Positions 19,077 through 57,698 of a stretch of 64,000 bases of DNA are shown in pieces; within the stretch, counting starts at the first letter, position 1; every line of letters starts with the position of its first letter. Origin of the DNA: Eledone cirrhosa (taxonomy: Eukaryota); NCBI GenBank assembly GCA_964016885.1, contig OZ024743.1, forward strand, positions 113,150,001-113,214,000. The letters are read 5' to 3'. A program made the position numbers and the translations under genes. The notes below the pieces were generated by a model. That model searched no databases. It saw nothing but the letters and a program-made list of their open reading frames with translations, and was not told the origin of the DNA.

Positions 19077-20874
19077 ATATATATATATATATATATGTCA
19101 AAATCTTTCCCTCTGTCTATCTCTTTTCCTCTCTGTCTATCTTTTGCCATAAAAACGATAATGATAATCAATTCAATTAAGAAATATATATATATAAATA
19201 TATATATATATTATTAGTATTATTATTAAAATTAAATACCATTTATTCTGCGGCAGAGAGCTTCATCTTCTCCATCATTCGCTCCTCCAGAATCGTAGTA
19301 CTGGTCGTTATTGTATGTGTGTGTTTCTGCGTGTGTGTATATATATATGTGTGGTGTGTGTGTGTATGTATGTGTATATATGTTTGCGATCGCCCGTCGT
19401 GAGGAGAATGCTGTGTATATATTCACATATTTAGAGGTAATATCACGTGAACACAATCACGTGACAATTCACATTATTCTTTCAAAAGGAAAAGTTTGGC
19501 GCCATTTTTCTTTCAAAAGGAAAAGTTTAGCGCCATCTCTTAATGTTGTCTGAAGCTGAGGAACCGGGGTTATTCCATTTCTGTCAACAACTTACTGGCG
19601 AAAAGGATCTCTTTGGATTTGTACGTGTGTTATAGAGGTATTTATTTACGCTTTAATTTATATTTTTAATTATCGTGTCTATAGTCTGCCTTTCATAGAT
19701 TATAGATTCCATACACTGGTGGTTTTTCCCTGTTTTATTGATAGTGCACTGTATATCTCTCTCTAGTGTGTTACCTTTTCAACATAGTATATTTTAAAGA
19801 GCTCAGGATTTCTTCTCCTTTGAGCACATTATTTACAGGTAATGGCGAGGGTCTATGGCTCTGTTAATTTATCGTGATATTTCGCTCCTTATAACAGTCT
19901 TTCCTATCCCTCTGTTTGGTTGAGCACACTTCTCTGAGTGGTTTTGGGCTGCCCTTTCTAGCAGCTCGTCCCTCAGAGGCCACTGGTTCACTGCACATCG
20001 TCCTTATTAAAGCAGTGGTTAGCTTTGTTGACCCATGACAAGCTTCTCTAATTTTCCCAGATCATTTGTTATTTAATTTACTAAAACGAATAACATATCT
20101 ATAAGGCAATACTAACATTTCTTCTTGTAGTGTTTGAGTACGTTTGCATGTCTTCTGTTTATTTTTCTTTATGACTTCTTTTTACTGAATTGTTTCTTTT
20201 GAAAATCATAAACATTATATAATTTGATATACACCATTTCCTTGCTGAACGAAACCATTTATTATGTGTACGTATCTAAATGAGCAAGGTTGTTTAAAAA
20301 TATCAGCGATATCAATCATACAATGGTGCTTGCTATCGTGCCAAACCAATTTAATGATGTTTAAGCAACTATAAACGACAGTACCTGCAAATAATAGAGG
20401 TGGGGTGCATTTTTACTATTACACCAGTCTCCGGTTTTCAAAGAGTAGTTAGTTTGGTTAGAACTTTTAAACATATATATATTCTTACTTATTTTCGACG
20501 TGTTTTGAACGAATATAGCCTTAAATTACTCATTCAACAACTATACGGTTATGCTCATAAGCCTTATCTTGTTTTACAAGGGTAGACTGAAAAGTTGGCA
20601 CTAGAACGCTATTAGCTGTCAGTCGAAAGCAGCCGATGAAAGCAAAACATCGTTTATTTCCGTATTACTACCACGCGTAAGTGGAGTTACTTAAATGAAA
20701 TTCTTTTTTTTTTCACGCGTTTTTTATTTTTTTTTTATTAAAGCATATAGATGTAAGTGGAGTTACTTAAATGAAAATATAGGTGGCCCTTAAAAGGGCC
20801 AAATTAGAATATACCGCTGCGTTTTTACAGTTTTACTAGTTACACATACACACATATATATATATATATATACA

Positions 20875-20953
20875 CACGGTGTCCCCTCCAAAATATATAC
20901 AATCTTTGATTACTTTGCTGTTGAAGTGTGTATACATTTTTTGGGACACTGTG
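20875..20953. mobile_element. ~80-bp Tc1-like MITE (copies at ~17544-17622 and ~63622-63708)
   Basis: cacggtgtccc...gggacactgtg inverted ends in a TA/CA context. Confidence 0.6.
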
Positions 20954-20955
20954 TT

Positions 20956-21005
<50 letters not shown>

Positions 21006-21448
21006 GAGAAGGGAGAAATTTTGGGATGCTACACCTGACATAATAAAAAACCAAAATACACCCTTAACATTTGTCGGAATATCAATCACGAGAGTAGATA
21101 AATAAATATATAAATACATAAATAAGAAATGATAGAAAAGGAAAAGAAAATCCCTACATTATGTAATATTCCCAGTCACCCCTAAATTTCAAAAGCGGGA
21201 GGGAAAAGTCCGAGGGTTAAAATCCCAAATGATGGTACCTCAAATACTAGTGTATCCCTTCGCATTACAGTTTCAAGCAATACATATGATCGCTTTGATG
21301 ACTCTTATTCGTTTCTAAGGGTCTCGTTTTTTTCTCTTCTTTCTATTATATATATATATATATGTCAAAATCTTTCCCTCTGTCTATCTCTTTCCCTCTC
21401 TGTCTATCTTTTGCCATAAAAACGATAATGATAATCAATTCAATTAAG

Positions 21449-21514
<66 letters not shown>

Positions 21515-21754
21515 AGTATTATTATTAAAATTAAATACCATTTATTCCGCGGCAGAGAGCTTCATCTTCTCCATTATTCGCTCCAGAATCGTAGTACTGG
21601 TCGTTATTGTATGTGTGTGTTTCTGCGTGTATATATATATATATATATGTGGTGTGTATGTGTTTGTGTGTATATGTATATATGTTTGCGATCGCCACTC
21701 TCGCCCTTCGTGGGGGAGAATGCTGTGTACATATTCACATATTTAGAGGTAATA

Positions 21755-21955
21755 TCACGTGAACACAATCACGTGACAATTCACATTATTCTTTCAAAAG
21801 GCAAAGTTTGGCGCCATTTTTCTTTCAAAAGGAAAAGTTTAGCGCCATCTCTTAATGTTGTCTGAAGCTGAGGAACCGGGGTTATTCCATTTCTGTCAAC
21901 AACTTACTGGCGAAAAGGATCTCTTTGGATTTGTACGTGTGTTATAGAGGTATTT
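21755..21955 (+). promoter_or_regulatory. Promoter / first-exon-like segment (duplicate at ~19443-19644)
   Basis: Two TCACGTGA E-boxes, two YY1-like GCGCCATnT motifs, local CpG enrichment, possible donor GAG|GTATTT at 21950. Confidence 0.45.
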
Positions 21956-22309
21956 ATTTACGCTTTAATTTATATTTTTAATTATCGTGTCTATAGTCTG
22001 CCTTTCATAGGTTATAGATTCCATACACTGGTGGTTTTTCCCTGTTTTATTGATAGTGCACTGTATATCTCTCTCTAGTGTGTTACCTTTTCAACATATT
22101 GTATTTTAAAGAGCTCAGGATTTCTTCTCCTTTGAGCACATTATTTACAGGTAATGGCGAGGGTCTATGGCTCCGTTAATTTATCGTGATATTTCGCTCC
22201 TTATAACAGTCTTTCCTATCCCTCTGTTTGGTTGAGCACACTTCTCTGAGTGGTTTTGGGCTGCCCTTTCTAGCAGCTCGTCCCTCAGAGGCCACTGGTT
22301 CACTGCACA

Positions 22310-22832
22310 TCGTCCTTATTAAAGCAGTGGTTAGCTTTGTTGACCCCATGACAAGCTTCTCTAGTTTTCCAAGATCATCTGTATCATCCTTATTAAAGCA
22401 ATGGTTAGCTTTACGGGCCCCATGACAAGCTTCTCTAGTGTTCCAAGATCATCTGTATCGTCCTTATTAAAGCAGTGGTTAGCTTTACGGACCCCATGAA
22501 AAGCTTCTCTAGTTTTCCAAGATCATTTGTATCATCCTTATTAAAGTAATGCTTAGCTTTATGGACTCCATGACAAGCTTCTCTAATTTTCCCAGATCAT
22601 TTGTATCATCCTGATTAAAGCAGCAGTTAGCTTTACGGACCCATGACAAGCTTCTCAAGTTTTCCCAGATCATTTGTATCATCCTTATTAAAGCAGTGGT
22701 TAGATTTTACAGACCCCATGACACGCTTCTCTAGTTTTTCCCAGATCATTTGTATCATCCTTATTAAAGCAGTGGTTAGACTTTACAGACCCCATGACAA
22801 GTTTCTCTTGTTTTTCCAGATCATTTGTATCT
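22310..22832. repeat. Minisatellite, ~74 bp x ~7
   Basis: Unit ccttattaaagcagtggttagctttacggaccccatgacaagcttctctagttttccaagatcatttgtatcat. Confidence 0.9.
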
Positions 22833-23324
22833 CTTTCAATAAACCTCTGTTGGTGATAAGAAGGGCATAACCATAATATTACATCCAATTATCTTTGTTA
22901 TAAATACTTAATTAGAGCAACTGTTTTCTAAGATGTAACAGGGGACACATTTCATATACATTCCTGTCAGTTTTGGCATGGTTTCTACAGCTAGATACTC
23001 TTTCTAGTACCAACTGATTGGTATTAGAAAGGGTATCTAGCTCAACCTACACTATATTGTTATGATTTAATACAAACATTTATCAAGCCAGTAAAATCAT
23101 ACCAAAACTATGTCAAAACATGTTATATTTGGAAAAATTGAAAGATCTGAAGAAAAAAAAAAAAAAGGTTTCATGTATTTGTTCTAATTAGGCAAGATTC
23201 CATTCCTTGAAACTTGAATATTTGTAAATAAATTCTCCAGAAATAAAGTCACTCTAATTATATTTAGTACCGAATATACTTCCATTTTTTATTGATAAAA
23301 CATTGAGGAATACAGTTTACTTAA

Positions 23325-24197
23325 CCCTTTAGCATATAAACCAGCTGTATCTGACCAGAATTCGCTCATCTCTTTCTGTTCAAACCGGCTGTAGTCGGCT
23401 GCTCATACTGATGTTAAGGTATTATTCTCAACATAAATATCAAAATCTCAGATTCGATATTATGTGAGATAATTATGTAAGGTAAAGCCTTTACCATGAA
23501 AATATAATAGTAAATATAGAGTAATGTAAATGCTAAAGGGTTAACCCTGTAGCATTTAAACTGGCCGTATCTGGCCAGAATTCTCTCACCTCTTTCTTTT
23601 CAAACCAGCTGTAACTGGCCACTTGTATTTATGCTAAGGTATTGTTCTCAAAATAAATATCAAAATCTCATAGATTTGATATAATGTGAGATAAAAATAC
23701 AAGAGTATATATAGAGTAATGTAAATGCTAAAGGTTAAATCCTTTCATTACCAGGAGAGTTACTGCTTATGAGTTTCAAATAATTTCGAAATTTATGAAG
23801 ACTTTTGAGTGTTTTAGTAATATAACTAACTTTCTCATAATTAAACTGGTATTTGGAACATAACTTAACGAAGATTCTTAAAATATGGTGGAAGATTTTT
23901 AGGTAGATAAACGCTTTTGTTTCCATATTTCTAATGAAAGACACTGTTTATGTTTCAAATAATCTTTATAAATAATCAAGAATTTGGAGTGATTTAACTA
24001 ACTTTTTCATAATTAAGCTGGTTTTTGGAATATAATTTAACCCTTTAGCATTTAAACTGGCTGTATCCGGCCAGAATTCTCTCAGCTCTTTCTGTTTAGA
24101 CCGGCCATAACTAGCTACTCATACTGATGTTAAGGTATTGTTCTCAAAATAAATATCAAAATATCATAGACTCGATATTATGTAAGATAAAGCCTTT
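23325..24197. mobile_element. Cluster of piggyBac-like MITEs (23325-23540 and 23545-23734 sharing a TTAA; 24041-24197 truncated)
   Basis: TTAA|CCC..TAGCAT...ATGCTAAAGGG|TTAA; same family as 643-1055. Confidence 0.85.
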
Positions 24198-24239
24198 AGT
24201 GTGTTACCTTTTCAACATATATATATATATATATATATA

Positions 24240-25915
24240 TAAAGAATGAATAATAACAAGTAGACATCATGAAAAGGTAATTTATTCCGTGTGCTTACAA
24301 ATGTTTCCACGGTGGTTATACAGCCTAGTTATGCTATGTGCAAATTTACAACTATTTGCAAAACTCAAATATCAAATGCTGTGACCACTGTATCATCAGA
24401 GCAGAATGGTTAAAATGTACAATGTAAATACCCTTAAGTGAGATTATTGGAGAAGATAGAGTAGAAAAAGAAGAGAGAAAAGTAGGAGAGGAAGAGAGAG
24501 AGAAAGATATGCAGGGGTTGGAGAAATAGGAGAGTGGTTTGTAGATATCTTAATCAAAATGTTATGGTAGGGGTTTTATTATACTGGTTACTCTTAGAGC
24601 GACCACCTTAAGCGATGCGTTGATAGTCAAGGTTGGAATTATTTATTGCCCCAGAGGGCAGGTTCATAGATGTGGAGAGGGAGGGAGGTGGCCAAAGGCG
24701 AGAGAGAGAGAGTGGAATGGATATAGAGGGAGAGATAGAGAGGGAGGGAGGTGGCCAAAGGCGAGAGAGAGAGAGTGGAATGGATATAGAGGGAGAGATA
24801 GAGAGGGGACAGACGAAAGCTATGGGGTGGGTGAACTTTGGGTTCGTAGTAGTAATCTGCGAATTGCACTAAGTTACCATTTATAGTGATAGGCAGGGTA
24901 TTGTCTTGTAGTGTGGGGGGAAGAGAAGGTGGATAGCTAGAAAGCGATGTTATAGTTACGGGTTCGAATGTTAAGTTATTTTATAGTGAGAGAATTTAGC
25001 TTTTAGTTTGTGGTTGCAGTATAATGATCGTTCGATTCTATCGTTAAGTAGTTTATTTTTGTATTTTAATATGTACATAACCTACAGTACTTCAATCCAC
25101 TCCGATATGCACTTGCGCTGGAAAGTATATCCCATTTTAAGGTGAACTGTTGGTTGCGTTCACGAAGTTGCCAGGTCTTGTTGGCGAGCGTGGTCACAAA
25201 ACGGTGATCAGGATGTTTAATTGAGAATCGATGACGGTACCAGCTAGATTTAAACGAGGTGGTGATAGACCCGATGTAATACCATTTCTGGTCGTTCGAT
25301 TCAACCGTGCATTGGTAAACAATGTTGGACTTTAGGCATTCATTCTTCAATGGACATCTTTCAGGTAGATAGCAGTTACAGTTTTTGTTGTGGGTAGCGG
25401 GCATACCATGGATAGGTTGTGATAGCAGTACAGGTGGGTTGTGTAATACCCGTCTCCCATTTAGTGGTTGGGAGGCAGATATTACGTTCTGCCCATCTAT
25501 TACCAAAATATTTTGTTTTGTAGTGTTGTTTAATTGCTTTAAGTTAAGTTTTTTATGTATGCTTCAAGGTTTGGTGCCGTGGAGTATGATAGTCTAATAG
25601 TTTTAGAGTTCAGAATTTTACTGTATTTATGGGAACTAGGGAAATGCTTGTTGATTAACTTAAAGAATTAAAGAGATAGTTTTGTACTAATCGAAGCATT
25701 AAAAATAGGATTATACCAGATATACTTTCTACAACGTGATTTATTTGGTGGTGATTTTCTATTATTAGTATGTCTGGTGGTACTGCGTGTGTGCGCTTGT
25801 ATTTTAGTCCCCCAGTTACGTATTCCTTGATTTCGTGTAGAGCTATGTGTGTTATGGAGATTCTTATCAATGTATTCTATTGTATCCTGGTGGTCGGCAT
25901 TCCTTAATGCATGTT
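24240..25915 (-). mobile_element. 5'-truncated, frameshifted second Naiad-type PLE (thumb end, linker, GIY-YIG, 3' UTR with HHR)
   Basis: IWYNPIFN; CNCYLPERCPLKNECLKSNIVY...YYIG...CRLC at 25066-25506, homologous to the 7283 ORF C-terminus. Ends in (TA)n. Confidence 0.9.
24292..24403 (-). ncRNA. Type I hammerhead with 85-nt stem II
   Basis: Minus strand: tgct CTGATGA tacagtggt-cacagc...gctgt-ataaccaccgtg GAAAC attt GTA^agca. Confidence 0.75.
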
Positions 25916-30019: not shown

Positions 30020-33000
30020 AAGTAGAAAACCTAACTTTAAGCTAAAACCGAACTTTAAAAATAACTTACCCTAACACTTGCACTCACACATGCTCTAACA
30101 GTGAACTTAGCGCTAACATGAAAACTAACACAAACACAAAATCTGAAAACTAACATTAAATAGAAAACTAACACAAACTAACCTGAACACTAACACTAAA
30201 ACTAACACTAATCTGAACACCAGCACTAAAACCAACACTACCGTAAACACTAATACAAACACTAACACTAACCTGAACACTTACACTAAAACTAACATTA
30301 GCACAAACATTAACCTGAACACTAGCACTAAAACTAACACTACCATAAACACTAACACTGACCTGAGCACTAACATTAAAAGTAACACTAACACTAACAC
30401 AAACACTAATCTGAAAACTGATACTACCCAGAAAACTAAGCTAACATTAACTTCAACACTAAAACAAACACTAACGCTAACAGAGATACTAACACAAATA
30501 TTAACACAAAAACAAACACTAACACAATCTCTAACACTAAAACTAACATTAACTTGAACACTAACACTAACCTGAAAACTAAGCTAACATTAACCTTAAC
30601 ACAAACACTCATGCTAACACTAACAGAAATACTAATGCTAACATTAACACAAAAACAAAGACTAACGCTAACACAATCACTAACACTAATGGAAATATCA
30701 ATCACTAATGCTGACAGAGATACTAAAACAAATATTAACACAAAAACAAATACTAACACTAACACAATCTCTAACACTAACCTCAACACTAACACTAAAA
30801 CTAACATTAACTTGAACACTAACTCTAACCTGAAAACTAAGCTAACATTAACCTGAACACTAACATAAACACTAATGCTAACACTAACAGAAATACTAAT
30901 GCTAACATTAACGCTAACCTTAACACAAAAACAGACTGACGCTAACACAATCACTAACACTAATGGAAACATTAATCACTAATGCTAACAGAGATACTAA
31001 CACAAAAACAAACACAAAAACAAACACTAACACAATCTCTAACACTAACCTTAACACTAAAACTAACATTAACACTAACATAACTTTAACACTAACCTGA
31101 ACACTTACACTAAAACTAACACTAACAGAGATACTAACACAAATATTAACACAAAAACAAACACTAACACAATCTCTAACACTAAAACTAACATTAACTT
31201 TAACACTAACCTGAAAACTAAGCTAACATTAACCTGAACACTAACACAAATACTCATGCTAACACTAACAGAAATACTAATGCTAACATTAACACAAAAA
31301 CAAAGACTAACGCTAACACAATCACTAACACTAATGGAAACATCAAACACTAATGCTAACAGAGATACTAACACAAATATTAACACAAAAACAAATACTA
31401 ACACTAACCTTAACACTAAAACTAACGCTAACACTAACCTAAACACTTACACTAAAACTAACACTAACAGAGATACTAACACAAATATTAACACAAAAAC
31501 AAACACTAACACAATTTCTAACACTAAAACTAACATTAACTGGAACACTAACACTAACCTGAAAACTAAGCTAACATTAACCTGAACACTAACATAAACA
31601 CTCATGCTAACACTAACAGAAATACTAATGCTAACATTAACACAAAAACAGACTAATGCTAACACAATCACTAACACTAATGGAAACATCAATCACTAAT
31701 GCTAAGAGATACTAACACAAATATTAACACAAAAACAAATACTAACACTAACACAATCTCTAACACTAACCTTAACACTAACATAACTTGAACACTAACA
31801 CTAACCTGAACACTTACACTAAAACTAACATTAACCTAAACACTAGCACTAAAACTAACACTACCATAAACAGTAACACAAACACTAAAACTGATCTGAG
31901 CACTAACAGTAACACTAACACTACCATAATACTAACACTAAAAAAAACACTAACACTAACCTGAACACTAACACTAAAACTAACACGAAAACTGATACTA
32001 ACCAGAAAACTAAGCTAACATTAACCTCAACACTAAAACAAACACTAACATTAACAGAAAAACAAAGACTAACACTAATGGAAACACTAACACAAACATT
32101 AACACAAAATAAAACACTAACACTACCGTAAACACTAACACGAACATTAACCTGAACACTAACACTACCATAAACCACTAACCTGAACACTAACACTAAC
32201 ACAAACACTAACACTAACACGAACACTAATGGAAACACTAACGCCAACGCTGACACTGACGAAGATGGCTATGCTGGCACAAATGCTAATGCAAATGTTG
32301 ACACAATCGCTTATGCTGACACAAACACTAACGTGAATACTGATGCAGGTGCAAAGGTGAATGCTGACAGATTCTGACACACACACTGATGTAAATGCTA
32401 CACACTCTAACGCTGACGTGGACACTGACACAAATGCTCACGATGATATAAAAAAAGCAAATGCAGACACTAATGCAAACACAGACGCAAATGTTGATGC
32501 AGATGTTAACGCAAATGCTGACAGCGATGCTAATGTGAACCTTAACGCAGACGTAAACATTGACGTAGAAGCTAAAGGAAACACCGATGCAAACACTAAT
32601 GAAAATGCTGACGCAGACGCTGACACAGACGCTAACACACGTTAACACAGATGCTAATGTAAACACTAACGCAGATGTTAATATAAACACTGACGCAGAC
32701 GCTAACATAAATGCTGACACAGATGCTAACACATATTGACACAGACGCTAACGTAAACGCTGACACAGACGCAAATGTAAACGCTGACGCTGATGTAGAT
32801 GTAAATACAGACACTGACGTAGAAGCTAACACAAACGCTGACACAAACACTAATGTAAGCGCTGATGTAGAAGCTAATGTAGCTGCTGATGTAGAAGCTA
32901 ACGTAAACGCTGACGTAGAAGCTAACAAAACGCTGACGTAGTTGTTACGTAGAAGCAGGCGTAGAAGTTAGCGTTTATCCTTACCGCCGAAGCTGATCTC

Positions 33001-43784: not shown

Positions 43785-43873
43785 ATATTAGTTTATATAT
43801 ATGTGTGTGTGTATATATTAGTTTATATATATATATGTGTGTGTGTGTGTATATATATATATGTTTATAGATA

Positions 43874-44198: not shown

Positions 44199-44373
44199 TG
44201 CTCCCAGCAGCTGTGGTCACCCCATAGTATCAAACTAACCATGGAGCTTGAAGCAATCCAATGAAGCTACACCAAGAAGGTTGCCACGATGAAGGAGATA
44301 AACTACTGGGAGAGTCTAAAAGAACTGAAACTCTACTCCTTGGAATGAAGACGGGAGAGATATGCAATGATAT

Positions 44374-47300
44374 CATTTTCTTCTTGTCTCCCCACCCTTC
44401 GGTTCATCCATCCATATATCTATCTGTATAATCGCCCAGAATCCAATCCTACCTTCTCAATGCTATTCTATAATTCTGTCTGGCTGTTCTAAATAATCTT
44501 GTGTATTTTAAAATCCCAGTATATCGCTTGTGACTGTTTATTGCTTTATTTAAAACCTTCTCCTTGCTAACTACCCCTCCCACCCGCCCCCACTCTCCAC
44601 CACTATTATTTGGACCAATCATAAGTCAGCGGCCTATGCTATCACTTCTCCTGGTTGTTTTTCGATATGATGGATGGACTAAGTAATTTCTGGAGAGTCT
44701 GAAGAATCTGGACACTCGGAGACAATGCCAAAGATAACGACAAATTCACCTCATGCTGCCGGACGAAAGGGCAAGGACTCCTCCTCTTTGTTTTGGCCGC
44801 GGATGGCCAACATAACCCCAACCCATCCCCCTCACCCACCAAACGCAATCCAAAACTTCAGAGTTGGTACCATGAATGGAGGCACCTTAAAAGGGCGCTC
44901 TAACGAGGTTGTAGAAATGCTTGAACGTAAGGAGGTTGATGTTTGCTGTATCCAAGAGACCAGGTGGAGGGGCGGGTCTGCTAGATTCATTGTGGGTAAA
45001 ACACGATGCTATAAGCTTTTCTGGGTGGGAGATGACAATGGGCTGGGTGGGGTAGGAATCATGTTAGCAGAAAAATGGGTGGATAAGATAATAGACGTAA
45101 ATAGAGTGAATGACAGAATAATTAAAATAAGACTTGTTCTAAATAGAACTACTGTGATAGTAATATCTGTGTACGCACCCCAATCCGGACTGCCTTGCAC
45201 TATAAAAGACAGATTCTATGAGACACTGATGCTCACTACCTCCCAAATAACTGACAGTGACTATATAATTATTGCTGGTGACCTAAATGGTCACGTTGGA
45301 CAACATTTTGACGGCTATGGGTTTGGTACTAGAAATGAGGAAGGCTCCAGAATCCTGGAATTCTGTGATGCAAATAACCTAACTATCTGTAACACTAACT
45401 TCAAAAAATAGACAATCACTTGATCACCTACAGATCAGATGAACATACCAGCCAGGTAGATTATATCCTTACCAGAAGACGTGACAGAGTGGCTGTTGTT
45501 AACACTAAATCCCGCCCCATGAAGAATGCACCTCCCAACATAGACTCATAATTAGCGACCTCATAGTCAGGACGAGATGTACTCGACAACAGAAGAGGAC
45601 TATCCTCAGGAGAAAAATATGGAAGCTAAAGGACCCCACAGCCAGTCATAAATTTAAAAGCATATTACTTGATGCTTTCGACAGTAAGGAAGAACAATTA
45701 GAATCGTACAATATAGAGGAACAGTGGGAATTCCTGAAAGCAAACCTGCTGATGGCGGCAGACGAAGTCTGTGGCTGGAGCAGGCCTATAGGCAGGAGGA
45801 GAGTAACGTGGTGGTGGAACAGTAAGGTGGAGGAGTCAATTAAGGCCAAAAAGAAGGCTTGGAAAGTATGGCGGGATGGGGGAAGTAGAGAAGACTATCA
45901 AGTGGCCAGGAGGGAAGCTAGGAGACAAGTGTACTTTGCAAGAAGGGGAGCAGAGGAAAGAAAGTTCAAGCATGTTCTACAACGCGAGGATCAAAAACGT
46001 GTCAAGGAAAACCGTGATATTGTTGGGGAGAAGTGTGTCCTTAATGATGATGGTGTACTTGCCATCACTGACGCTGATAAGAAGGTAGCTTGGAAGTGTC
46101 ACTACGAAAGGCTACTAAATGAGGAGAATAAATGGGAGAAAGACAGTCTCCCCCACATCGATCCAATAGAGGGGACCAGCAGTGTTAGTCGAAGGTAGTA
46201 AGGCAATCAGTAGTTAGTCGAATAAGTAAGGCAATCAAAGAAGGTAGTATAATAAGTAAGGCAATCAAAGATATGAAGACGGGTAAGGCGGCTGGACCTT
46301 CGGAAATAGTTGCTGGAACGGTGGGACACACCATGGTCACCCGGATAGTAAACCAAGTCATACAGAATGGGGTTGTTCCGAAGGACTGGCGTAGCAGCAT
46401 CATCATTAACTACTACAAGGGTAAAGGAGATACCCTAGATAGGGGTAACTATAGAGGCATTAAATTAATCGACCAGGTCATGAAGGTCACAGAAAAAGTA
46501 ATAGCGCAACTAATCAGAGAGCGAATTGATCTAGATGAAATGCAGTTTGGGTTTGTGTCAGGTAAAAGTACCACAGACGCTCTTTTCATTGTACGTCAAC
46601 TACAGGAGAAGTACCTAGCTAAAAGTAAACCCCCTATACTTAGCTTTTGTCGACTTGGAGAAAGCCTTTGACAGAGTCCCCCGCTCCATTATCTGGTGGG
46701 CTCTTAGAAAACTAGGTGTTGATGAATGGCTTGTGAGAGCTATACAAGCCATGTATAAAGAAACAGTCAGCAAGGTTAGAATTAACAACGAATATAGTGA
46801 AGAGTTTAGCGTAAAAGTTGTTCATCAGGGCTCCGTTCTTAGCCCCCTACTATTTATTATTGCCCTTCAGGCTATAACAGAGGAGTTCAAGACCGGCTGC
46901 CCATGGGAACTCGTATACGCAGATGATCTAACGCTCATAGCTGAATGAATGGCTGAACTAGAGAAGAAATTCCAAACATGGAAGCATGGCCTAGAATCAA
47001 AAGGCCTTAAAATTAACCTGTCTAAGACTAAAGTTCTAGTTTGTAGGAAGGAAAATAGGGCACCGGTACCATCCGGGAAATGGCCATGCTCAGTGTGGAG
47101 GAAAGGAGTAGGTAGAAACTCCATTTTATGTCCCAAATGCAAAGTATGGGTACATAAAAGATGTAGTGGGATCACAGGTAAACTAACTAAGAATATAGAT
47201 TTTATATGTGGCCAGTGCTCTGGAGCAATAAGTAGCAGCAAGTTACCACAGAATAATAGCTCATTCCATTGCACAGATGGTTCTATAGAAATAGTGGACA

Positions 47301-48248
47301 CCTTCCGTTACTTGGGTGAAAAAATCAGCAGTGGTGGAGGGTGCTCTGAAAGTACAGTAGCTAGTGTCAGAACTGGATGGAAAAAGTTCAGAGAGCTTAT
47401 ACCACTATTAGCCGCTAAAGGGTTCTCTCTAAAAATGAAAGGCAGGCTGTATGATGCCTGCATATGAACAGCAATGTTACATGGCAGTGAGACCTGGGCA
47501 TTGTGTGCAGAGGATATACGCAGACTGGAGTGGAACGAAGCTTGCATGCTCCGCTGGATGTGTAATAGTAATATATGTGAACGGCAAAGCATAAACGAAC
47601 TAAGGGAAAAATTAGAAATAAGAGGGATCAGATGTTATTTACTCGAGAGAAGACTACGTTGGTATGGTCACGTGATGCGCATGAAAGACGACAGCTGTAT
47701 AAAAAAGTGCAGGGCAATAAAAATAGACGGTAGCCACGGAGTAGGCAGACGCAGAAAAACCTGGGACGACTTGATAAATTCCGAGCTCACACACTTACAC
47801 CTCTCCAAGACAATGTCACTGGACCGAGATCTTTGGCGCTACACAGTAATACAGAAGACCCGCCTTACCTAAGTACAAAGTGAAACCTACTACAGTCAGT
47901 AGGCACCTCTAACAAAAATACACCCCCGTCCCAATACCCCCACCCCATCCACACCACCCCTTTCAATGTAAAGTTATGTTGGTACCACAACATCCAGTCC
48001 AAAACAAATGAGGTCGTGTAGGTGTCATGACAAAAAACACACAGTCCACTCTGTAATGTGGCCGTGTAGGTTACACGGTAAAAACCTCCCAGTCCACACT
48101 GTAAACGTGGTTGGTGTTAGGAAGGGCATCCAGCCGTAGAAAACCCGCCAGACAGTCCTATGCGAACAAGACAACCACTCTTGCCTCAAGTGGGAAAACT
48201 CCCGTCCAAACCCACGCAAGCGTGGGAGATTGACGTTAAACGATGATG
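44374..48248 (+). mobile_element. Near full-length RTE LINE pseudogene (APE, RT, PHD-like Cys cluster), inserted in a CR1-like fragment
   Basis: GTMNGGTL, CIQETRW, VYAPQ, GDLNGH, KAFD, QGSVLSP, YADD, with frameshifts and stops; (GAT)n tail. atgatat duplicated at 44367 and 48249. The flanks join as RERYAMI/YIWKIL. Confidence 0.9.
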
Positions 48249-48486
48249 ATGATATATATGGAAAATCCTGGGGGGGACTAAGACCAAACTTTCGCATTGA
48301 GAGCTGGACCAATTCTCGAACAGGACGTCACTGTGTGGTACCAAAGGTCCCGTCTTCCACATCTAGAATCAGGAGCAGCTATTGCAATAGCCTGGGGTTC
48401 AAAGGCCCTCAACTTGGTTTTCAAAATTTAAATTTGTGTTTCCTATGCATCAATGCTTCAAGCAAGCTATAAAACTCTGTTATATT

Positions 48487-49835
48487 TCATCATCATTTTA
48501 TGTCAGTTCTTCTACGCTAGCATGGGTTGTCCTGTTGTGGGCAGTGTCCGGTCGGCTGACCTTTTCTTGCTCATACGAGAACTGATTCTGTCTTGATTTC
48601 TACAGCTGGATGCCCTTCCTAACACCAACCTCATTTACAGTGAGTGCTGGGTGTTTTTTTTTTTTTTGCCGTGGCACCTCCACGACCACTTTGCAGTGGA
48701 ATGATAGGGACCCCAGTCCTATCATCTCATTTCTACAGCTGAGTAAACTGGAGCAATGTGAAATAAAATGTCTTGCTCAAGGGAACAACACACCACCCGG
48801 TCCAAGAATTAAACTCACATCCTTTCAATTGCAAGCCCAATTCTCTAACCACTGAGCCATGTGCCTTCTATTGTTGGCAATGTTAGGTCAGATGACCATG
48901 TCTTGCTCATAAAGAACTGATTTTGGCTTGGTTTCTACAGCTGGATGCCCTTCCTAATGCCAAGTTCATTTACAGTGAGTACTGGGTGTTTTTTGTTGTG
49001 ATTCCTCCACGACTACTTTACAGTGTGGACTGGGTGTTTTTTACCGTGTCACCATCATGACCACTTTACAGTGTTTCGACCTGTTCTCATGAAAGATATA
49101 TTGGCGGGTGGGATGGAGTGGTGCATACTGTATGTATGTTTCAGCCTTAGCCTGGGCCTGTGGGCAGTTGGGGTTTCTGTATTACCTCATAATGCCAGAG
49201 ATCTTGGTCCTGTGACATTGCCTTTCAGAGGTGCAATTGGGCAAGGTCGGCTTTTATCATTTCATCTCAAGTCTTTCTGGGACTTTATGTAGCTGTCATC
49301 CTTCATACGAATCACATGTCCATACCAACATAATCTCCTCTCCTACACACCACATTTGATTCCTCTTATGCCTAGTTTCGCTTTCAGATTGTTTATGCTT
49401 TGCTGTTCGCGTATATTACTATTACACATCCATCGGAGCATACAAGCTTCATTCCTTTCTAATCTACGCAAGTCTTCTACACAGCGCCCAGCTCTCACTA
49501 CCATGCAACATTGCCGTTCATATGCACACATCATACAGTCTACCTTTTATTCTGAGGGAAAAGCTTTTTGTATCCAGCTGTGGCAGTAGCCCCCTCAACT
49601 TCTTCCCTCCCGTTCTTTCAGAACACCCCCCTCCGCTGCTAATTCGGTATTGTTTTTACCAAGTCCTCCCAGACTTTGATGTCACTTGTTTTCAGTGATT
49701 GTTTGCTGCTTACTGTCCTGGTGCAACTGTTACATGTAAAGCCTACATTCTTAACTAAACTTCCTGAGATCCCACTACATCTCTTGTGTACCCATAATTT
49801 GCATATGGGACAGAGGATGGAGTTTCTACCTACAC
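48487..49835 (-). mobile_element. RTE 3' fragment plus CORE-SINE
   Basis: Minus-strand RRLERNEACMLRWMCN and GVGRNSILCPICKLWVHKRCSGI match the 44-48 kb RTE; SINE at ~48590-48868. Confidence 0.8.
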
Positions 49836-49881
49836 CTCTCACACACATATATATACACACACTCACATATATATATATATA

Positions 49882-50849
49882 TACTAGCCGAATTACCAGC
49901 GCCTTGCTGCGTTTCATACATTTTTTTTGTAAGAAAATGATTATTGATTTTAAATCAGTGATATAATTTATGGAGAAAAACTCAATATTACTCAATGTAA
50001 AATACAATGCATGAAAAATTGGAAAACATCATTTTTTGTAATATATCAAATCAAAATTGCATTATTAAATCTTATTCTTATTTTGTTTCTTGTAAATAAT
50101 TTTTTTCAAAATATCAATTGAAAACTTTTGTGAATAGGCCTCATCTCTTGTCATTTACCTATGGTTTAAGTTTCATATAAATCGAAAGGGAAATGTTTTC
50201 AGCGGGGGTTTGTACCCCCGGGGAACCCTAATAGGGGGTTTAACCACCATTAAGCTGTCTTATAGTATTGAAATGTTGTGAATAGGCATCATATCTCTTC
50301 ATTTATCTATGGTTTAAATTGCATATAAATCGAACCGAAAAAATTTTCAGTGGGGATTTTGTGCCCCCTGGTGAACCCTAATAGGGGGTTTAACCCCCAT
50401 TAAGGTATTGTAATTTTATTAAAATTTGCTGAAATGATGTGAATATCTTGTCGTTTACCTATGGTTTAAATTGCATATAAATCGAAGGGAAAACTTTTTC
50501 AGCAGGGGTTTGTGCCACCGGTGAACCCTAATAGGGGATTTAACCCCCATTAGGGTATTTTAATTTTATTGAAATTTGCTGAAATTTTGTGAATAGGCAT
50601 CATATCTTGTCATTTACCTATGGTTTAAATTTCATATAAATCGAAGGTAAAGTTTCAGCGGCGGTTCTGTGCCCTCGATGAACCCTTTGATTAAAATGAA
50701 ATATACTTATACAAGTACCCTGGGCAATGTAGTTTCAGAATATATATGGTTATGGGGATCTATCTCCAAAACCATAGGAAGAGTTCGTAAAATCTTATTC
50801 CATTTATTGGCCAAACTTTTCACTATAGGGTGTCTTAATATTGAAATTT

Positions 50850-50850: not shown

Positions 50851-50896
<46 letters not shown>

Positions 50897-50913
50897 CACA
50901 AACACACACACAC

Positions 50914-50950
<37 letters not shown>

Positions 50951-50979
50951 AACACACACACACATATATATATATATAT

Positions 50980-51320
50980 GAAAAACAAGGGGAGAAGAAT
51001 ACTGCATGGATTACATATTATAAAATTAGTCCCTCATCAGTGATTTGCCAACCATCATTGGTATTTCATCGCATTAAAAATCAGATACCTCAGGTTGGTG
51101 CGAGCAATAACTAAAATAAGCTATTGGGACAAGTGAAACGCGTAAAGCGAGTGAGACAAGTAAACAACAGAAGGAAAAGCAAACCGAAGGTTGGAAAAAC
51201 AGCAAGCCACATGATAGTTATCCGATCAGCATAAGCTGGGTGAATTTCATGAGCAGTCAGAAAAACAGACCGTACGCTGTGAATGCGGTGTGAGAAAGAA
51301 GGAACCCCACTACTAGCGAA
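50980..51320 (-). mobile_element. PLE-type tail family with atypical HHR-like motifs (fold-back copy at 62990-63378)
   Basis: Shared ~200 bp with 62990-63195; ends at (TA)n; CTGATGA and GAAA motifs on the minus strand. Confidence 0.6.
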
Positions 51321-51481
51321 CGGGAGGAAGTGAGAAGGGGAGAAACAGAGAGTGAGTGAGTGGAAGTGCGAGGAAGAGGTCAGTCGAGAGAAAAAGTGTA
51401 ACTGACAGAGAGGGCGAAAGAAGGTAAGAGAAACAGAGAGAACGGGGGAGCAGTAAGAGAGAAAAATATATATATACACAA

Positions 51482-51512
<31 letters not shown>

Positions 51513-51775
51513 CACACACACATACACATATATATATATATATACATACACAAACACACACACACATACACAAACACACACACACATATTTATATCTTTT
51601 AGCAGAGCATTTTAATATTGCCACTCAATGAAAACCCTTTGTTTGTTTGGAATAAATGAATCTTGAAAATTAGGAGTGCCTGTCAGTGTGTATGTGTTTG
51701 TCTATTTAGCATCAATTTACTACCCTCCCCTACCACCAGAAAATGTATAAATACCACCATATTACATTGACAGTC

Positions 51776-51827
51776 GGCTTTTCTGATGATTTCCTCCGAA
51801 TGAAACAGTTCTAGTCCTGTTGAAGCC
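51776..51827 (+). ncRNA. Hammerhead (second copy of the 14428 family)
   Basis: ggctttt CTGATGA tttc-ctcc-gaat GAAACAG..CTGTT^gaagcc. Confidence 0.7.
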
Positions 51828-51852
51828 ATTTCTATATTAAATATATATATAT

Positions 51853-52432
51853 ACTCTTTTAGCTGTTCCAGCCATCCGGCTGAGACCATGATTGGGCACT
51901 GCCCTTGTTGCTACACATTCTATCTCCAGCCTGTGTTGGCTGGCCATTGATGTAAGAGGGAGTTCGTTGCTGCTGCCCTTAGGTTACCTTCGTACCGTGA
52001 TGTGGGCTCATCCAGGATCCTGGATAACAGGGTGTCGAGAAGTTTCTTGAAAATATCCACGGCCACACCATGTAGATCTCTCAAATCTCTCGGCAGTTTG
52101 TTGAAGAGTTGAGGGCCTTTGAACCCCAGTCTATTGCAATATCTGCTTCTTGTTCTAGATGTGGAAGACGAGACCTTTGTCACCACACAGTGACGTCCTG
52201 TTCGGGGGTTGGTCCCGCTCTCAATACCAAAGTTTGGCGCTAGTCCCTCCAGGATTTTCCATATGTATATCACTGCGTATCTCTCCCGTCTTTGTTCCAA
52301 GGAGTAGAGTTTCAGTTCTTTTAGCCTCTCCCAGTAGCTCATCTCCTTCATCGTGCAATCCTCTTGGTGTAGCTTCGTTGGATTGTCTCAAGTTCCGTGG
52401 TTAGTTTGATACTATAGGGTGACCACAGCTGG
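51853..52432 (-). mobile_element. CR1/Jockey-group LINE 3' fragment
   Basis: SYWERLKELKLYSLEQRRERY..IWKIL..GPQLFNKLP. Related pieces lie at 44200-44373 and 48249-48415. Confidence 0.85.
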
Positions 52433-53365
52433 GATCAATAGTCCAGGCAACTTAAGACAAATGGCCTTCATAGTATCAACATGGTCTCCTGGTCTCTTAT
52501 ATAGAAAACCTCAAATAAAAAGTCAAGATTTGTTTCGATTTAACAGAGCAGAAAGAATTCGCGTCAGAATATTCCAACCAATCCAGCCTATATCAGCTGA
52601 ATAAATATGTATATGGAGATATATATATACACACCCACATGCACATATATATACACACACGCACGCACACACATATATATATACACACACACACACACAC
52701 TCAAACACACACACATACATAAACGCATGCATACGTGATGGCTGCCTCCTCGTTATCGAGTATGACCATTGCACGATATACCATTATTAATAATTATTAA
52801 TTAATTCTATCGTGCAATGACTGTGCATGAAGATATTTTTTTAAATGAGGAAAGACTGTGCACTGAGCCAATCCCACTCTCTGGTTTTATATCGGAGTTA
52901 TCCCAGTTTCCTGAGTTGCCTTCTCCTAGAAGAATGCCCTGACAAAGGCTAGGGGTTCTTCACTCCCAGTGGTTTAACCGCGCAATCGGGTGTCCAGCCC
53001 GATTATTTCTATGTCCCCGCGCATGTACATACACATGCACCCATGTATATACACATATACATACATATGTACATGTGTATATACATATTTACACACTTTT
53101 GGATGGCCGTTGACTCTTATGAGATCTTCCGCCCTTTGTCAGGTTTTGTTTTTTGTCCTGCAGGGTGTCCAAAATCACCCTCCTCACCAAGTAAACTTGG
53201 TGGGGTTGCCGGTTTAGTCGCCGACGACCCGACCATGCGACAGGTTGTACTGGGTTACATGTTACCAATAGCACTCAAGAGTGACCCGACATACATACAT
53301 ACATACATACATACATACATACATACATACATACATACATACATACATACATACATACATACATA

Positions 53366-55425
53366 CTACATGATGGCTGCAAACTCGTGTTCAAGTATTG
53401 CCATCGCCCGATAAAATGTTCAAAAATGTGAAGCACAAATGTGACTCTTTAAACCAGCCAAATACTTGCATCCTCTGGCACACACATGGCAACTTTAGGC
53501 TCCCTCGAAACCTTCCATTGCTTTGTTCTGGCTGTATGTTCACATGTAATTTTTAAGACCTCCTATGCTTGTACATTTCTTACACCTTTTCAGATCATAA
53601 TCTACATGAGGTCTACTGATATGACTTTGTTCATGTCTAATCAAACCAGCTTTGCTCAGGCTGACTAGACCACAGTGCTGGCACACCAGATGATGTTCAA
53701 CAGCAGGCAGTTCAGAACAGTCTCAATCCTCACCTTCCTTTTCAGTGTTAGGTGTTCTCTCCGACGAGTTTCAAAGTGTTCACCACCTGACTTGATCAAA
53801 CGTCTCCACTTCACACGCTCGTCAGCCATTTTCTCCCATTCGTCAGATGAAATTCCAGCACAAGCAAAGGTGCCCTTGATACAGTCCCGGTACCGCCTTT
53901 TTGGTGTATGTGGTGGTCGCCTTCTTTCACACAGTTCTCCATAGAGAAGTTGCTTTGGAATACGATCATCAGACATCCGCACCACGTGACTGCACCACCT
54001 CAACCGATACCGAAAGATTATGCTCTCTATAGTCACGCACTTGCTCCGTTCTAGAACTTCCAAATCACTGGCGAACATTTTCCACCACACCCCAAGTAAC
54101 TTATGAAGAGATTGTTGGTGAAATCTCTCCAGATCCTTGAGCTGCTTTCTGTATGTGACCCACGTTTCACAAACATTAAGTAAAGAGGAGACGATACAAG
54201 TCAGATACACTTTCACCTTGGTTTCGATAGTGATACCTCGTCTGGACCATAAACATTGATGCAGCCGTCCAAAAGCATCACTAGCTTTCTTGATTCTTAA
54301 GGATATTTCATTATCATGTGTGCATGACGTGTTCAACGTACTACCAAGGTAAACAAACTTGTCAGCAACTTTTAGCCTCTTTCCGTACACGTACACATTT
54401 GGTGCAGTGTACTCGTTTCCAGGTACTGGCTGATACATCACAACAGTCTTTTCCAAGCTTATTGTGACGCCCAAAGTGCTGCAAGCTGCAGAAAAAGAGT
54501 TCATAATATGCTGCATGTCACTTTGTGAGTGTGCAAAAAGATCGCAGTCGTCTGCATACAAAAACTCTCGGATTATAGATGTTAATACCTTTGTGCTTGT
54601 ACCAAAGCGCCTTGTGTTGAGCAACTCTTGGGATCAATCTATCCATCAATATTCGACACGACTTTACCAACTACTGAAAGAAGGGATATGACATGATAAT
54701 TGCCACATTTGTCCTTGGAGAATCACCATGAGCGCATCCTTCTTGTGGTACATTCTCATCTTCCCACACCATTTTCATGAGGTCAGTCAGGCGCTGCGGG
54801 AAGTTTTCACCACCACACTTCAAAACCGCTCCACTCAGACCATCCATACCAGGAGACTTACCACAGTTCAGCTTATGCACAACAGAAGTCCCCTCTGCAA
54901 GAGAAGATACATTAGCCATCTCATATGCTTCACTGGTTCAATAGGAATGGAACAAATGAAATCATCATCAACCTGGGATGGCTGGTTTAAGAGCTCATCA
55001 AAGTGATCTCTCTATCTGTCGAGTGTCTTTTGGGTCGCGCAGTAATTGCTTGCCATCTTTCGATCTCAAAAGGGCCACTGGAGAGCTGAAAGGGCCATAC
55101 ACCTCTGTGAGTAGAAAGTGCGGCAGTTTCACATTGTTGCCGTCAGATGCCACTTGAACTTCATCTGCTTTGTTGCTCCACCAGGTATTTTGCATAGCCC
55201 TGAGTTTCACCTGCACTTCCTTCTTTACCTGTCTGTAACGCTCATAATTGACATCAACAGAGCTACCACCTTTAAGAACTGCATCAAGTGCCTTTTGTTT
55301 TCCGTCTAGCAGAGCCTTGACCTCCTGGTCATTTTCATCAAACCAGTCCTTGTTTTCTTGTGATAAAGCCAAGGACCTCTGCTGAAGCCCCATAGACCGA
55401 GCTCCTGAAGTCCTTCCAGTTGTTC
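53366..55425 (-). mobile_element. RTE/BovB-like LINE fragment, internally deleted
   Basis: FLYADD, YLGS, RIPKQLLYGEL, KSPGMDG, DWFDEND. Confidence 0.9.
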
Positions 55426-56149
55426 TCATACACGCATGCATACTTACATATATACATGTATACATACATGCATCCATCCATCCATCCATCCATCCACACA
55501 TACATGTATACACACATACATACATCCATCCATATGTGTATACATACATACATACATACAATGGTTAAAGTGTTTGACTGACGACCATAAGTTCATGGGT
55601 TCATATTTGGGACCGGGTAGTTATTGAATCAACCTGATATCAATGTTTATTATACAGCACACTTCCTCTTTGGTATAATATGACACATAGTAATATCTAA
55701 CATAGTACCCATCTAATCTGTTATAATATGATTTACCTTTCCTCTGTGAAGGCACATGCCTTAGGGGTTACGGTACTGAACTAACCATTATAAAGTCATG
55801 GGCTCGTTTCTTCGATCCTGCAGCATGTTGCGTCCTTCAGTAAAATACTTTAGTTCGTGTAGCATCTTCTACCAGGACTTGGGCAGACAGATAATATCAG
55901 TAATGGAAAAAACCTTGTTTCATTAGTATGACCTGGAAATCAGTTCCACTCTATTTATCTTCTTTATTAAAGGCAATCAAATTTTTTTTTATTTTATTAT
56001 TTTTCTTATTTTTCCATGTTTGTTAAATAAATTTCAAAAAATCGAACTAAATTGAAATTTTGTAATAAAATGTCCATAAAAGTTAATGTTTACAATAAAA
56101 TAAAATGTAATAAAATGTATTGAAGTCGACGAAATGTGGACCTTCATTT

Positions 56150-56421
56150 TTGAAAGATGGATAATGCTATAAGCAGACCTTACAATATTGTACCACAATT
56201 TTCCTTTGTGCAAAAGTGGGCAGCCGAATTTAGGAAAGGATAGGGGATTCTTGAAGATGACCCAATGTCTGGACGTCCTACAACTGCCACTACCGAGGAA
56301 AACATTGATCTCAGTACTGCAACACCGATGGAAGAAGTGTGTGGAACGCAAGGGAGACTATGTTGAAAAATAAACCTCATTTGGTCACATTCCATGAGAG
56401 TATCTTTGTCAACCCTCGTAT
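56150..56421 (+). mobile_element. Internally deleted mariner remnant
   Basis: EDDPMSGRPTTATTEENID joined to RWKKCVERKGDYVEK*. Confidence 0.8.
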
Positions 56422-56456
56422 CTATGCGCAATATACGTAAAGATACAGAATTGCGG

Positions 56457-56874
56457 GCACTACAACGCTATTAGCTGTCATATTTGTTGGTGAAAAAAAT
56501 TTGATTATAAAACTTAAATTTATGAATGACTTGTTTTCTACATTGATAACCATGACTTGTTTTCTAATTAACTTAAATTTGTTTTCTAATTTGGCCCTTT
56601 TAAGGGCCACCTATATTTTCATTTAAGTAACTCCACTTACATCGATATGCTTTATAACCATGACTTGTTTTCTATTTGTTTTCTAATTTGGCCCTTTTAT
56701 GTCTTCCCTCTCTCTCTCTTCCCTATCTCTCCTCTTCCCTCTCTCTCTCTCAAAAAAAAAACGCGTGAAAACTCCACTTACGCGTGGTAGTAATACGGAA
56801 ATAAACGATGTTGACGAGTGACGTCACCTTCGCCTATTTTCCACTGGACTGACAGCTAATAGCGTTGTAGTGCC
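56457..56874. mobile_element. Small MITE with the same 25-bp GGCACTACAACGCTATTAGCTGTCA TIRs
   Basis: Perfect 25-bp inverted ends; no TSD seen (gaattgcg / ataatttt). Confidence 0.75.
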
Positions 56875-57520
56875 ATAATTTTAATTCAGTTAATTCAGGG
56901 TCAAATTGTTAATGGAATTAACCATCGCGATCTTTCCATCGCTACCGCTACTACAGCAGATACCATCAATCTCCATGGGGACTGTATCCATGCTTTTGAA
57001 TAAGGTTGGTGAAAAAAATTTGTTTTCTAAACATTTCTTCATAAAGGGTTGGTGAAACAAATTTGATAACCATAAATTTGTTTTCTAATTTGGCCCTTTT
57101 AAGGGCCACCTATATTTTCATTTAAGTTAACTCCACTGTTGGTGAAAATGACTTGTTTTCTACATTAATAACCATGACTATGAAAATATAGTTCATGGTA
57201 TTAGCTGTCAGAAGTAACTTCACTGTTGGTGAAAATGCCTTGTTTTCTACATTGATAACCATGACTATGAAAATATAAATGATTAAATCCAATTTATTTG
57301 ATAACCATGACTTGTTTTCTAATTAACTTAAATTTGTTTTCTAATTTAGCCCTTTTAAGGGCCACCTATATTTTCATTTAAGTAACTCCACTTACATCTC
57401 TATGCTTTAATAAAAAAACTAAAAAAAAAACTCCACTTACGCGTGGTAGTAATACGGAAATAAACGATGTTTTGCTTTCATCGGCTGCTTTCGACTGACA
57501 GCTAATAGCGTTGTAGTGCC

Positions 57521-57698
57521 GAAAAGTTAATAGGCTGACTATGAAGGAGGGTTGCTAGTGCTGTGAAATCTTGCATGCATTAATTTCAACTCTTAATAAT
57601 AACTGCATTGTTTCTTTCTCAGGACTATGTTGAAAAATAAGCTTCATTTGAGAGTATCTTGGCAAGTCTGTGTGAGTGAACTTTTCGGCCGACTGGTA
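57521..57698 (+). mobile_element. Remainder of the mariner-derived MITE whose first ~20 bp lie at 20575-20596
   Basis: Contains gactatgttgaaaaataa (DYVEK*). Ends tgaacttttcggccgactggta, inverted-similar to tacaagggtagactgaaaagtt. Confidence 0.65.

Follow-up and report, generated by a model that had tools for sequence, protein, structure and literature searches.

A 37-kb interval without a transposase gene in Eledone cirrhosa belongs to a dispersed family of giant elements with Merlin ends

Background

Tn10 and Tn5 consist of two full copies of one element around a cargo; the outer ends are used, and the inner ends are idle or damaged. Here, we describe a 37-kb interval in the genome of Eledone cirrhosa that works like such a composite transposon, or like a macrotransposon, but does not contain two full copies of one element; it is a Merlin. 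The interval lies in a window of 64,000 nucleotides (C4:113150001-113214000 of a 3.0-Gb assembly, C4 being contig OZ024743.1), and coordinates without a contig name are those of this 64-kb window. It has no transposase gene and belongs to a dispersed family of Merlin-ended elements of 22 to 37 kb.

Merlins are defined by terminal inverted repeats (TIRs) of 24 to 462 bp that begin with 5'-GG and by target duplications of 8 or 9 bp (PMC8101967). By the repeat coordinates listed there, the zebrafish elements Merlin-1_DR and Merlin-2_DR, both with tandem repeats, reach at least 10.3 and at least 13.7 kb. For maize Ac/Ds macrotransposons, cases of 10.3 kb and 28 kb with 8-bp duplications are on record, and their copy number can rise (PMC9910405, citing Huang and Dooner 2008). 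Composite transposons are defined in PMC6431247, which also describes the Drosophila "Ising TE," a composite unit with hundreds of kilobases of genic DNA between foldback elements. Pack-TIRs have a median capture of 224 bp, 1.4% of them are multicopy in animals, and the multicopy ones have distinct duplications; Merlin is absent from the accessible text (PMC8277862). Large repeat-rich Merlins (10 to 14 kb) and composite eukaryotic units are already known. A recent octopus annotation lists 2 recent Merlin families with 11 insertions and 28,998 bp in total, or ~2.6 kb per insertion (PMC13282606). A search of openly accessible papers gave no report of an amplified Merlin family of 22 to 37 kb.

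The present family shares with Merlin/IS1016 (PMC8101967) the GG termini, the 8-bp duplication, a single DDE_Tnp_IS1595 transposase of ~300 residues, and internal tandem repeats. Unlike the Merlins listed there, it measures 22 to 37 kb, has at least 129 copies, is mostly non-autonomous, and shows stacked inner TIRs and swapped ends. As in the Ac/Ds macrotransposons (PMC9910405), the outer ends of neighbours would move the intervening DNA as a unit, but those are plant hAT elements known as single experimental alleles, whereas this is a natural animal family, amplified more than 100-fold and with several probable, fixed rounds of capture. The "Ising TE" (PMC6431247) is likewise an animal composite unit moved by flanking inverted-repeat elements, in contrast to the multicopy repeat family with a fixed core found here. 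Like Pack-TIRs and Pack-MULEs (PMC8277862), these TIR elements carry other DNA, and their multicopy members have distinct duplications; they are, however, ~100 times longer, and no parental locus was identified.

The comparison with Tn10 and Tn5 holds in that two modules of the same family frame the cargo, and one of them supplies the transposase in the four transposase-bearing copies. It fails in that the modules are unequal derivatives of miniature inverted-repeat transposable elements (MITEs) and the window copy lacks the transposase. No selectable cargo gene was found by Pfam, which gave retroelement domains only.

Boundaries and target site

The boundaries of the element are given by the following features.

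20575 to 20588, plus strand: outer segment of a terminal repeat belonging to the mariner-type target MITE (on average, 8.4 of 13 bases shared with 14 intact copies)
20589 to 20596, plus strand: left target-site duplication, GAAAAGTT
20597 to 20809, plus strand: left end, a 25-bp family TIR starting with GG and a subterminal arm of the "derived" type (junction found 105 times in the genome; 10 of 17 copies)
57521 to 57528, plus strand: right target-site duplication, GAAAAGTT (junction in 90 reads of run X4)
57529 to 57698, plus strand: rest of the interrupted mariner-type MITE, with the second terminal repeat decayed (44 scored genome matches at 80 to 92%)

The element opens at 20597, directly after GAAAAGTT, and closes at 57520, directly before the same 8 bp. 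A scan of the window located five TIRs, at 17263 (+), 20597 (+), 56456 (+), 56874 (-), and 57520 (-). The TIR starts with GGCAC. Between the two outer ends, 1 of the first 34 bases and 3 of the first 96 are mismatched; beyond this near-identical stretch, the repeat runs to ~210 bp at 83% identity (only 82.6% for 20597-20809 against 57339-57520).

Among 148 end observations in the fetched loci (overlapping loci counted twice), GAAAAGTT adjoins only the three ends of the window itself, and thus it is not part of the element. The target MITE has 44 scored matches in the genome (80 to 92%), from which 14 intact copies were taken. In each of the 14, GAAAAGTT or a near variant is present a single time, and the 13 bases 5' of it match the left flank of the window at 8.4 positions on average, versus 3.3 for random sequence. 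GAAAAGTT is a real target duplication, and the joined flanks rebuild the host repeat. The label "mariner" for this MITE is putative and is based on its TA flank and its appearance. In run X4, which comes from another sample and another study, 90 reads carry the right-end junction, and the 30-base consensus of their loose ends is the reverse complement of 57521-57550.

A dispersed family of copies

The 25-bp TIR with a non-C base nine places out has 355 matches in the genome, 100 of which were listed, and many of those listed face each other 22 to 48 kb apart with matching flanks. Twelve facing pairs, one nested pair of 84 kb, and four siblings found by their inner junction alone were fetched. 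Both ends were resolved in 17 copies, the window included, with lengths of 22.2 to 36.9 kb, plus one of 84 kb. The flanking 8-mers match at 8/8 positions in 14 copies and at 7/8 in 3, and all 17 are distinct; none of 544 cross comparisons between copies reaches 7/8. A register of 8 bp fits 17/17 copies at 7/8 or better, and registers of 7 and 9 bp do not.

The similarity among copies stops at the TIRs. Of the sequence within 20597-57520, 94% has a same-strand alignment in one or more of the 16 other copies, compared with 2% and 11% of the two flanks, and a core marker at 27306 occurs 129 times in the genome; thus, the interior is not local DNA. Collinearity among copies extends through the core (25911-50856), with pairwise distances of 1.7 to 4.5%, a divergence that probably reflects a single burst. 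With one mismatch allowed, as in the count of the core marker, the two types of left junction occur 105 and 46 times and the inner right junction 103 times. A left end in the right orientation lies within 100 kb upstream of 71 of the 100 listed inner right junctions, and a partner in the wrong orientation was found for 0 of 146 left ends (chance, ~0.002 per end). Median spans from left to right end are 29 and 36 kb; for 57 left ends, neither partner is among the matches listed.

The preliminary description of this locus had proposed a single composite in which two inverted MITE copies enclose a cargo, with Merlin-type ends and an intact 8-bp duplication. The ends, the duplication, the reconstructed insertion site, and the movement as one unit stand, and copies of the cargo and paired ends, each pair with its own 8-mer, were found elsewhere by searches of the kind that it had suggested. 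The one-off origin does not stand, the interval being one member of a family of at least 129. Flanks, 8-mer, and interior were checked for the outcomes named there as contrary to the proposal (an 8-mer recurring at many TIRs, flanks that match no single MITE, an interior of independent insertions), and none was found. That the family exists and has transposed is, in our judgment, close to certain.

Several further arrangements were seen during the searches. Of the exact matches to the core marker, 81/91 lie on the four largest contigs, C1 to C4, which make up 54% of the assembly (binomial p, 6e-13). At C5:12.47-13.06 Mb and C211:0.11-0.64 Mb, four copies each stand at a spacing of 160 to 215 kb, likely as a large tandem duplication that carries the element; C211 may be a repeat of C5. 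At C2:160784367 and C2:160948392, two ends on the same strand, 164 kb apart, have reverse-complement flanks, as would result if an inversion had displaced one of the two. The unit of 84 kb (C3:42007076-42091183) has a perfect 8-bp duplication and more family ends inside and likely consists of giants nested in a giant.

Transposase and assignment to Merlin

A profile search of the genome placed PF12762 matches just inside some family ends. In 4 of the 17 copies, a DDE_Tnp_IS1595 transposase lies within the last 1.9 kb, 0.5 to 1.4 kb inside the same TIR, and the family transposase matches PF12762 at E<1e-17 in Pfam. Uninterrupted frames of 301 to 303 codons occur at four loci (L148, L149, L151, and L152), three of which adjoin the same TIR; these are candidates for the Merlin partner that the preliminary description had proposed to look for. 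Residues D151, D212, and E249, the putative DDE triad by their motif blocks, are kept at all four loci and in at least 90% of 15 aligned sequences. In 3/3 proteins, Pfam found only PF12762 and no Zn_Tnp_IS1595, a domain that Merlins lack, yet C43, C46, C66, and C70 are conserved. The nearest named relatives are Octopus proteins (73 to 85%).

On these sequence grounds, we assign the family to Merlin because it combines GG termini, 8-bp duplications, and a DDE_Tnp_IS1595 transposase at the same TIR. The motif "GGNRM," given earlier as typical of Merlin termini, does not occur in the accessible text of PMC8101967. The window copy holds a transposase remnant of just 21 codons (codons 9 to 29, at 56908-56970, inside the last module) and is therefore non-autonomous; the earlier statement that no transposase lies inside was right as to a gene but overlooked this remnant.

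Palindromes of 2.8 to 3.3 kb with two inverted transposase copies, the same TIR, and 8-bp duplications were found at L154:941-3990, L155:1253-4533, and L156:971-3807. A TIR joined to the upstream arm of the transposase, as in a plain short autonomous element, was found in none of the 148 end observations in fetched loci. Separately, loci L041 to L070 represent further groups of Merlin type, in which open frames reach about 330 codons and this TIR is not found nearby; the initial number of candidates was 447.

End modules

The right side of the element is made of stacked pieces.

56456 to 56874, no strand assigned: 419-bp terminal module with two TIRs (inner junction found 103 times)
56875 to 56896, plus strand: 22-bp spacer starting with ATAATTTT (same junction in 5 copies)
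56897 to 57520, minus strand: one half of a MITE of the family, its TIR now serving as the right end, with the transposase remnant 56908-56970 on the plus strand (matches free MITEs)

The inner TIR of the 419-bp module keeps a frozen flank, GAATTGCG, at 56448-56455, and it is this junction that recurs 103 times in the genome. Most non-autonomous copies use the outer TIR, at 56874, as their end, and a matching duplication lies there in 9 fetched copies; the module has no target duplication of its own. A small MITE at 56457-56874 had been described previously: a two-ended element is indeed present, but it starts at 56456 and is an inherited inner module of 103 copies, not a free MITE.

In five copies, the TIR at 56874 is followed by ATAATTTTAATTCAG and the half-MITE, an extension of the end by 646 bp. 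The half-MITE matches free MITEs of 0.9 to 1.2 kb (L003, L016, L017, L022, and L027), and the 22-bp spacer is likely frozen host DNA of a former insertion site. At L028, the spacer and half-MITE are joined to other host DNA without the giant's end, with 7/8 bases like the frozen flank. L028 was considered as the donor of the half-MITE and is not singled out, half-MITE distances ranging from 0.9 to 10.7%. At L141 and L142 (C4:47.065-47.106 Mb), a copy with its core inverted relative to its left end adjoins L028.

The first piece of transposase-bearing copies is a 165-bp hairpin with a clipped inner TIR, and their transposase module opens with a hairpin of TIR-like arms without the terminal bases. 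Some 21 kb is thus framed by two modules of the family, the inner ends of which are disabled. Most copies have 5.6 kb of debris and the 419-bp module in place of the transposase module, the replacement starting at a (CA)n run. The end types form nested classes of 4, 3, 6, and 4 among the 17 copies. For left ends of the hairpin type, the closest right end is a transposase in 13/46 cases, versus 1/100 for those of the derived type.

One trait of the Tn10 type is kept, namely, inner TIRs at 56456 and 56874 with constant flanks (103 and 5 copies) and a duplication at the outer ends only. Two full copies are not present: the left end has 213 bp, the right side has two stacked modules, and the modules are unequal in transposase-bearing copies too. 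The composite origin suggested earlier therefore holds in spirit, with stacked modules and idle inner TIRs, but not as two inverted copies of one element.

Interior

The arms, core, and debris are as follows.

20810 to 24241, plus strand: left arm common to sibling copies, with a 74-bp satellite at 22309-22831 (90 to 97% to the copies at C3:232.56 Mb, C3:251.7 Mb, and C4:219.4 Mb)
25911 to 50856, plus strand: family core of low-complexity arrays, satellites, exon-like pieces, and fragments of long interspersed nuclear elements (LINEs) (collinear copies; marker 27306 found 129 times)
44373 to 48246, plus strand: broken LINE with endonuclease and PHD-like pieces (Pfam PF03372 and PF00628)
50857 to 56455, no strand assigned: ~5.6 kb of retroelement and mariner-type debris in place of the 1.9-kb transposase module (copy comparison; RVT_1 fragment at 53668-54633)

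Tandem repeats make up 27% of the interval (TRF), and the remainder is largely LINE and other element remains. The arrays of the core have units of 5, 6, and 12/24 bp, with a satellite of ~700/1580 bp at 35000-43000 and another of 150 bp. Two siblings also have the LINE of 44373-48246 in this position, and it is therefore inherited; the alignments cover 43824-50529 (93% to C3:232.56 Mb) and 43720-50424 (92% to C3:105.5 Mb). The 5.6-kb debris is missing from the four transposase-bearing copies and present in non-autonomous ones. It includes a mariner-type fragment (56100-56425) whose terminal sequence is that of the target MITE.

Exon-like pieces with AG acceptors lie at about 25939, 28751, 29197, and 29587, and an array rich in D, A, and N lies at 32200-34000. 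The frame of this array is broken in all 15 copies that have it, and in almost every copy, a stop interrupts the acidic frame of the piece at 29197. Pfam was blank for the low-complexity frames, and the domains found were those of retroelements only. A search for relatives of the D/A/N array gave one low-complexity bacterial match; as longer proteins only were searched, this is weak evidence of absence. With frames broken in copies, no Pfam match for the low-complexity frames, and no relative, a coding cargo could not be shown.

Growth of the element and competing explanations

The copies likely move by cut-and-paste with the family transposase acting in trans, and they likely enlarged by serial capture of neighbouring MITE ends. 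The serial capture of ends is inferred because of the inner TIRs with frozen flanks, the half-MITE extension, the swapped left ends, the nested classes, and L028. The transposase would pair any two correctly facing TIRs tens of kilobases apart and excise everything between them. In the founder, ~21 kb of genomic DNA may have been enclosed between a 165-bp hairpin mini-element and a 1.9-kb transposase module, each with its inner end clipped. The transposase end would next have been exchanged for the 5.6 kb of debris and the 419-bp MITE, and the left end would have been swapped. One lineage may then have adopted, as its new end, a half-MITE lying 22 bp farther out. Copy number presumably rose through repair or replication of donor sites, the textbook route for cut-and-paste elements. 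Once inserted into the mariner-type MITE, the window copy would have acquired a single retroelement fragment, and a tandem duplication would have arisen across its left junction.

Some observations weigh against this account. Thirteen of the 17 copies were chosen because their ends or flanks already seemed paired, and therefore the 14/17 perfect matches are not an unbiased rate of matched duplications. The siblings, which were unselected for pairing, do speak in favour of the account, the outer duplications matching in 3/4 (8/8, 7/8, and 7/8), but the fourth, at C3:105.5 Mb, lacks a resolvable outer end. The core tree, for which 14/18 copies were kept and four dropped for missing blocks, is star-like with support of 78 or less and does not confirm the order of steps. 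Transposase frames are frameshifted in all four fetched transposase-bearing giants. At C3:15.88 Mb, a derived left end is paired with a transposase end; therefore, ends have also been shuffled. A donor MITE with GAATTGCG on both sides was not found among the four genome matches, which had two mismatches each, and the sole left end flanked by ATAATTTT is truncated and has no partner within 47 kb. Finally, no single read or contig was seen to span both ends, and no empty allele was seen in runs X1 to X4, which gave no cover of the unique flank (19850-20845).

The main rival holds that the same family grew from within, host DNA being copied in by template switching or gap repair (of the Pack-TIR or FoSTeST type), and that the inner TIRs stem from small elements of the family that landed close to the ends and were later cut back by deletions. 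The family has many rearranged hairpin and palindromic derivatives, the (CA)n run at the join of the core to both alternative right ends is a likely switch point, and genome searches with GAATTGCG and ATAATTTT found no donor holding both halves of a frozen duplication. However, the TIRs at 56456 and 56874 are whole, the latter works with matched duplications in 9 other copies, and its flank is constant in the five-copy lineage. In addition, L028 looks like the unjoined site, and the pieces captured by Pack-TIRs are short (median, 224 bp; PMC8277862). We therefore consider growth from within unlikely, albeit the most serious competitor.

It is very improbable that a one-off composite of two inverted MITE copies moved a local block of 37 kb and was enlarged in place. 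The near-identity of the first 96 bp and a duplication outside only would fit, but dispersed copies with their own duplications already refute a one-off event; 94% of the interval aligns elsewhere (2% and 11% for the flanks), the core recurs 129 times, and the LINE at 44373-48246 and the end extension are common to siblings. Still less credit is due to segmental duplication or misassembly of a repeat-rich block with TIRs and 8-mers matched by chance: the 8-mers are AT-rich, the C5 and C211 copies lie in large tandem duplications, and runs X1 to X3, which may be from the source sample, do not cover the unique flank, but similarity ends at the TIRs, each copy has a different 8-mer with 0/544 cross matches, the target MITE is split exactly at the 8-mer, and the right junction is in reads of another sample. 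Equally far-fetched is service of the ends by a hAT, P, or Zisupton transposase, all of which also make 8-bp duplications, with the Merlin gene as a passenger; 27 of the 30 best PF12762 loci have no such TIR within 1.5 kb, but one transposase group sits at a fixed place inside the TIR, both in giants and in the 3-kb palindromes, which are flanked by separate 8-bp duplications, family MITEs hold transposase remnants, and the GG termini fit Merlin.

Thus weighed, transposition of a Merlin family that grew by serial end capture is the best explanation, and taken jointly, its end-capture history included, we give it a probability of about 0.8.

Duplicated left junction and window-specific changes

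Three features are particular to the window copy.

16726 to 20064, plus strand: upstream copy of a local tandem duplication, with host flank, the first ~1.7 kb of the element, and ~1 kb of extra insert (alignment to 20065-22377)
17255 to 17478, plus strand: second GAAAAGTT (17255-17262) and second left end (17263-17478) (window scan)
24242 to 25910, minus strand: window-specific insertion with an open reading frame at 25066-25563 (no match in 16 other copies; Pfam blank)

The single left end reported earlier was incomplete, a second one with the same flank and 8-mer being present at 17263. The duplicated segments (16726-20064 and 20065-22377) share 97% identity over 938 bp and 93% over 1,034 bp, with TTTGT common at the junction. 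The duplication contains host flank and is therefore younger than the insertion. Its junction at 20064/20065 is not bridged by reads in the runs, which gave no cover of the unique flank. Elsewhere, left ends recur at a spacing of 2.2 to 3.3 kb (C4:23913670-23918404, C12:22386522, and C12:42494509) and resemble the doubled left end of the window; this suggests that the left junction may be prone to tandem duplication.

Later growth by nested insertions, as previously proposed, accounts for little, most of the interior being inherited; only 24242-25910 and 50980-51465 have no match in the 16 other copies. The former is presumably a Penelope-like retroelement fragment, a label given by eye, with no Pfam match. 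Outside the giant element, the window contains a near-perfect direct repeat of 698 bp and perfect inverted repeats of 221 bp (6214-7130 and 12528-13225), which are a very young duplication or a foldback element.

Significance

Cut-and-paste elements of animals are usually annotated at a few kilobases, and in repeat pipelines, this family would be broken up into separate LINEs, satellites, and MITEs. At ~130 to 150 copies of ~29 kb, it amounts to some 4 Mb. A 300-residue enzyme of the IS1595 type is likely able to move at least 22 to 37 kb repeatedly in an animal germ line. This is relevant to a question still under discussion, namely, how large eukaryotic transposons can be and how they transport cargo (PMC6431247, whose accessible text does not mention Merlin). 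The family also offers a route for the dispersal of satellite arrays, as proposed for Merlin in PMC8101967, and for rearrangement in large genomes of the cephalopod type. With uninterrupted transposase frames and defined ends, the choice of ends and the limits of payload are directly testable.

In its widest form, for which the odds seem to us only a little better than even, the finding would mean that an animal Merlin transposase routinely moves units of 25 to 85 kb and keeps recruiting outlying TIRs, with outward, ratchet-like growth. Satellites and element remains would thereby have been spread to ~150 sites, inversions and duplications would have been caused, and the copies might still be mobilisable by the uninterrupted frames. 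The family would then be a natural, amplified eukaryotic counterpart of composite transposons, with the steps of its growth preserved.

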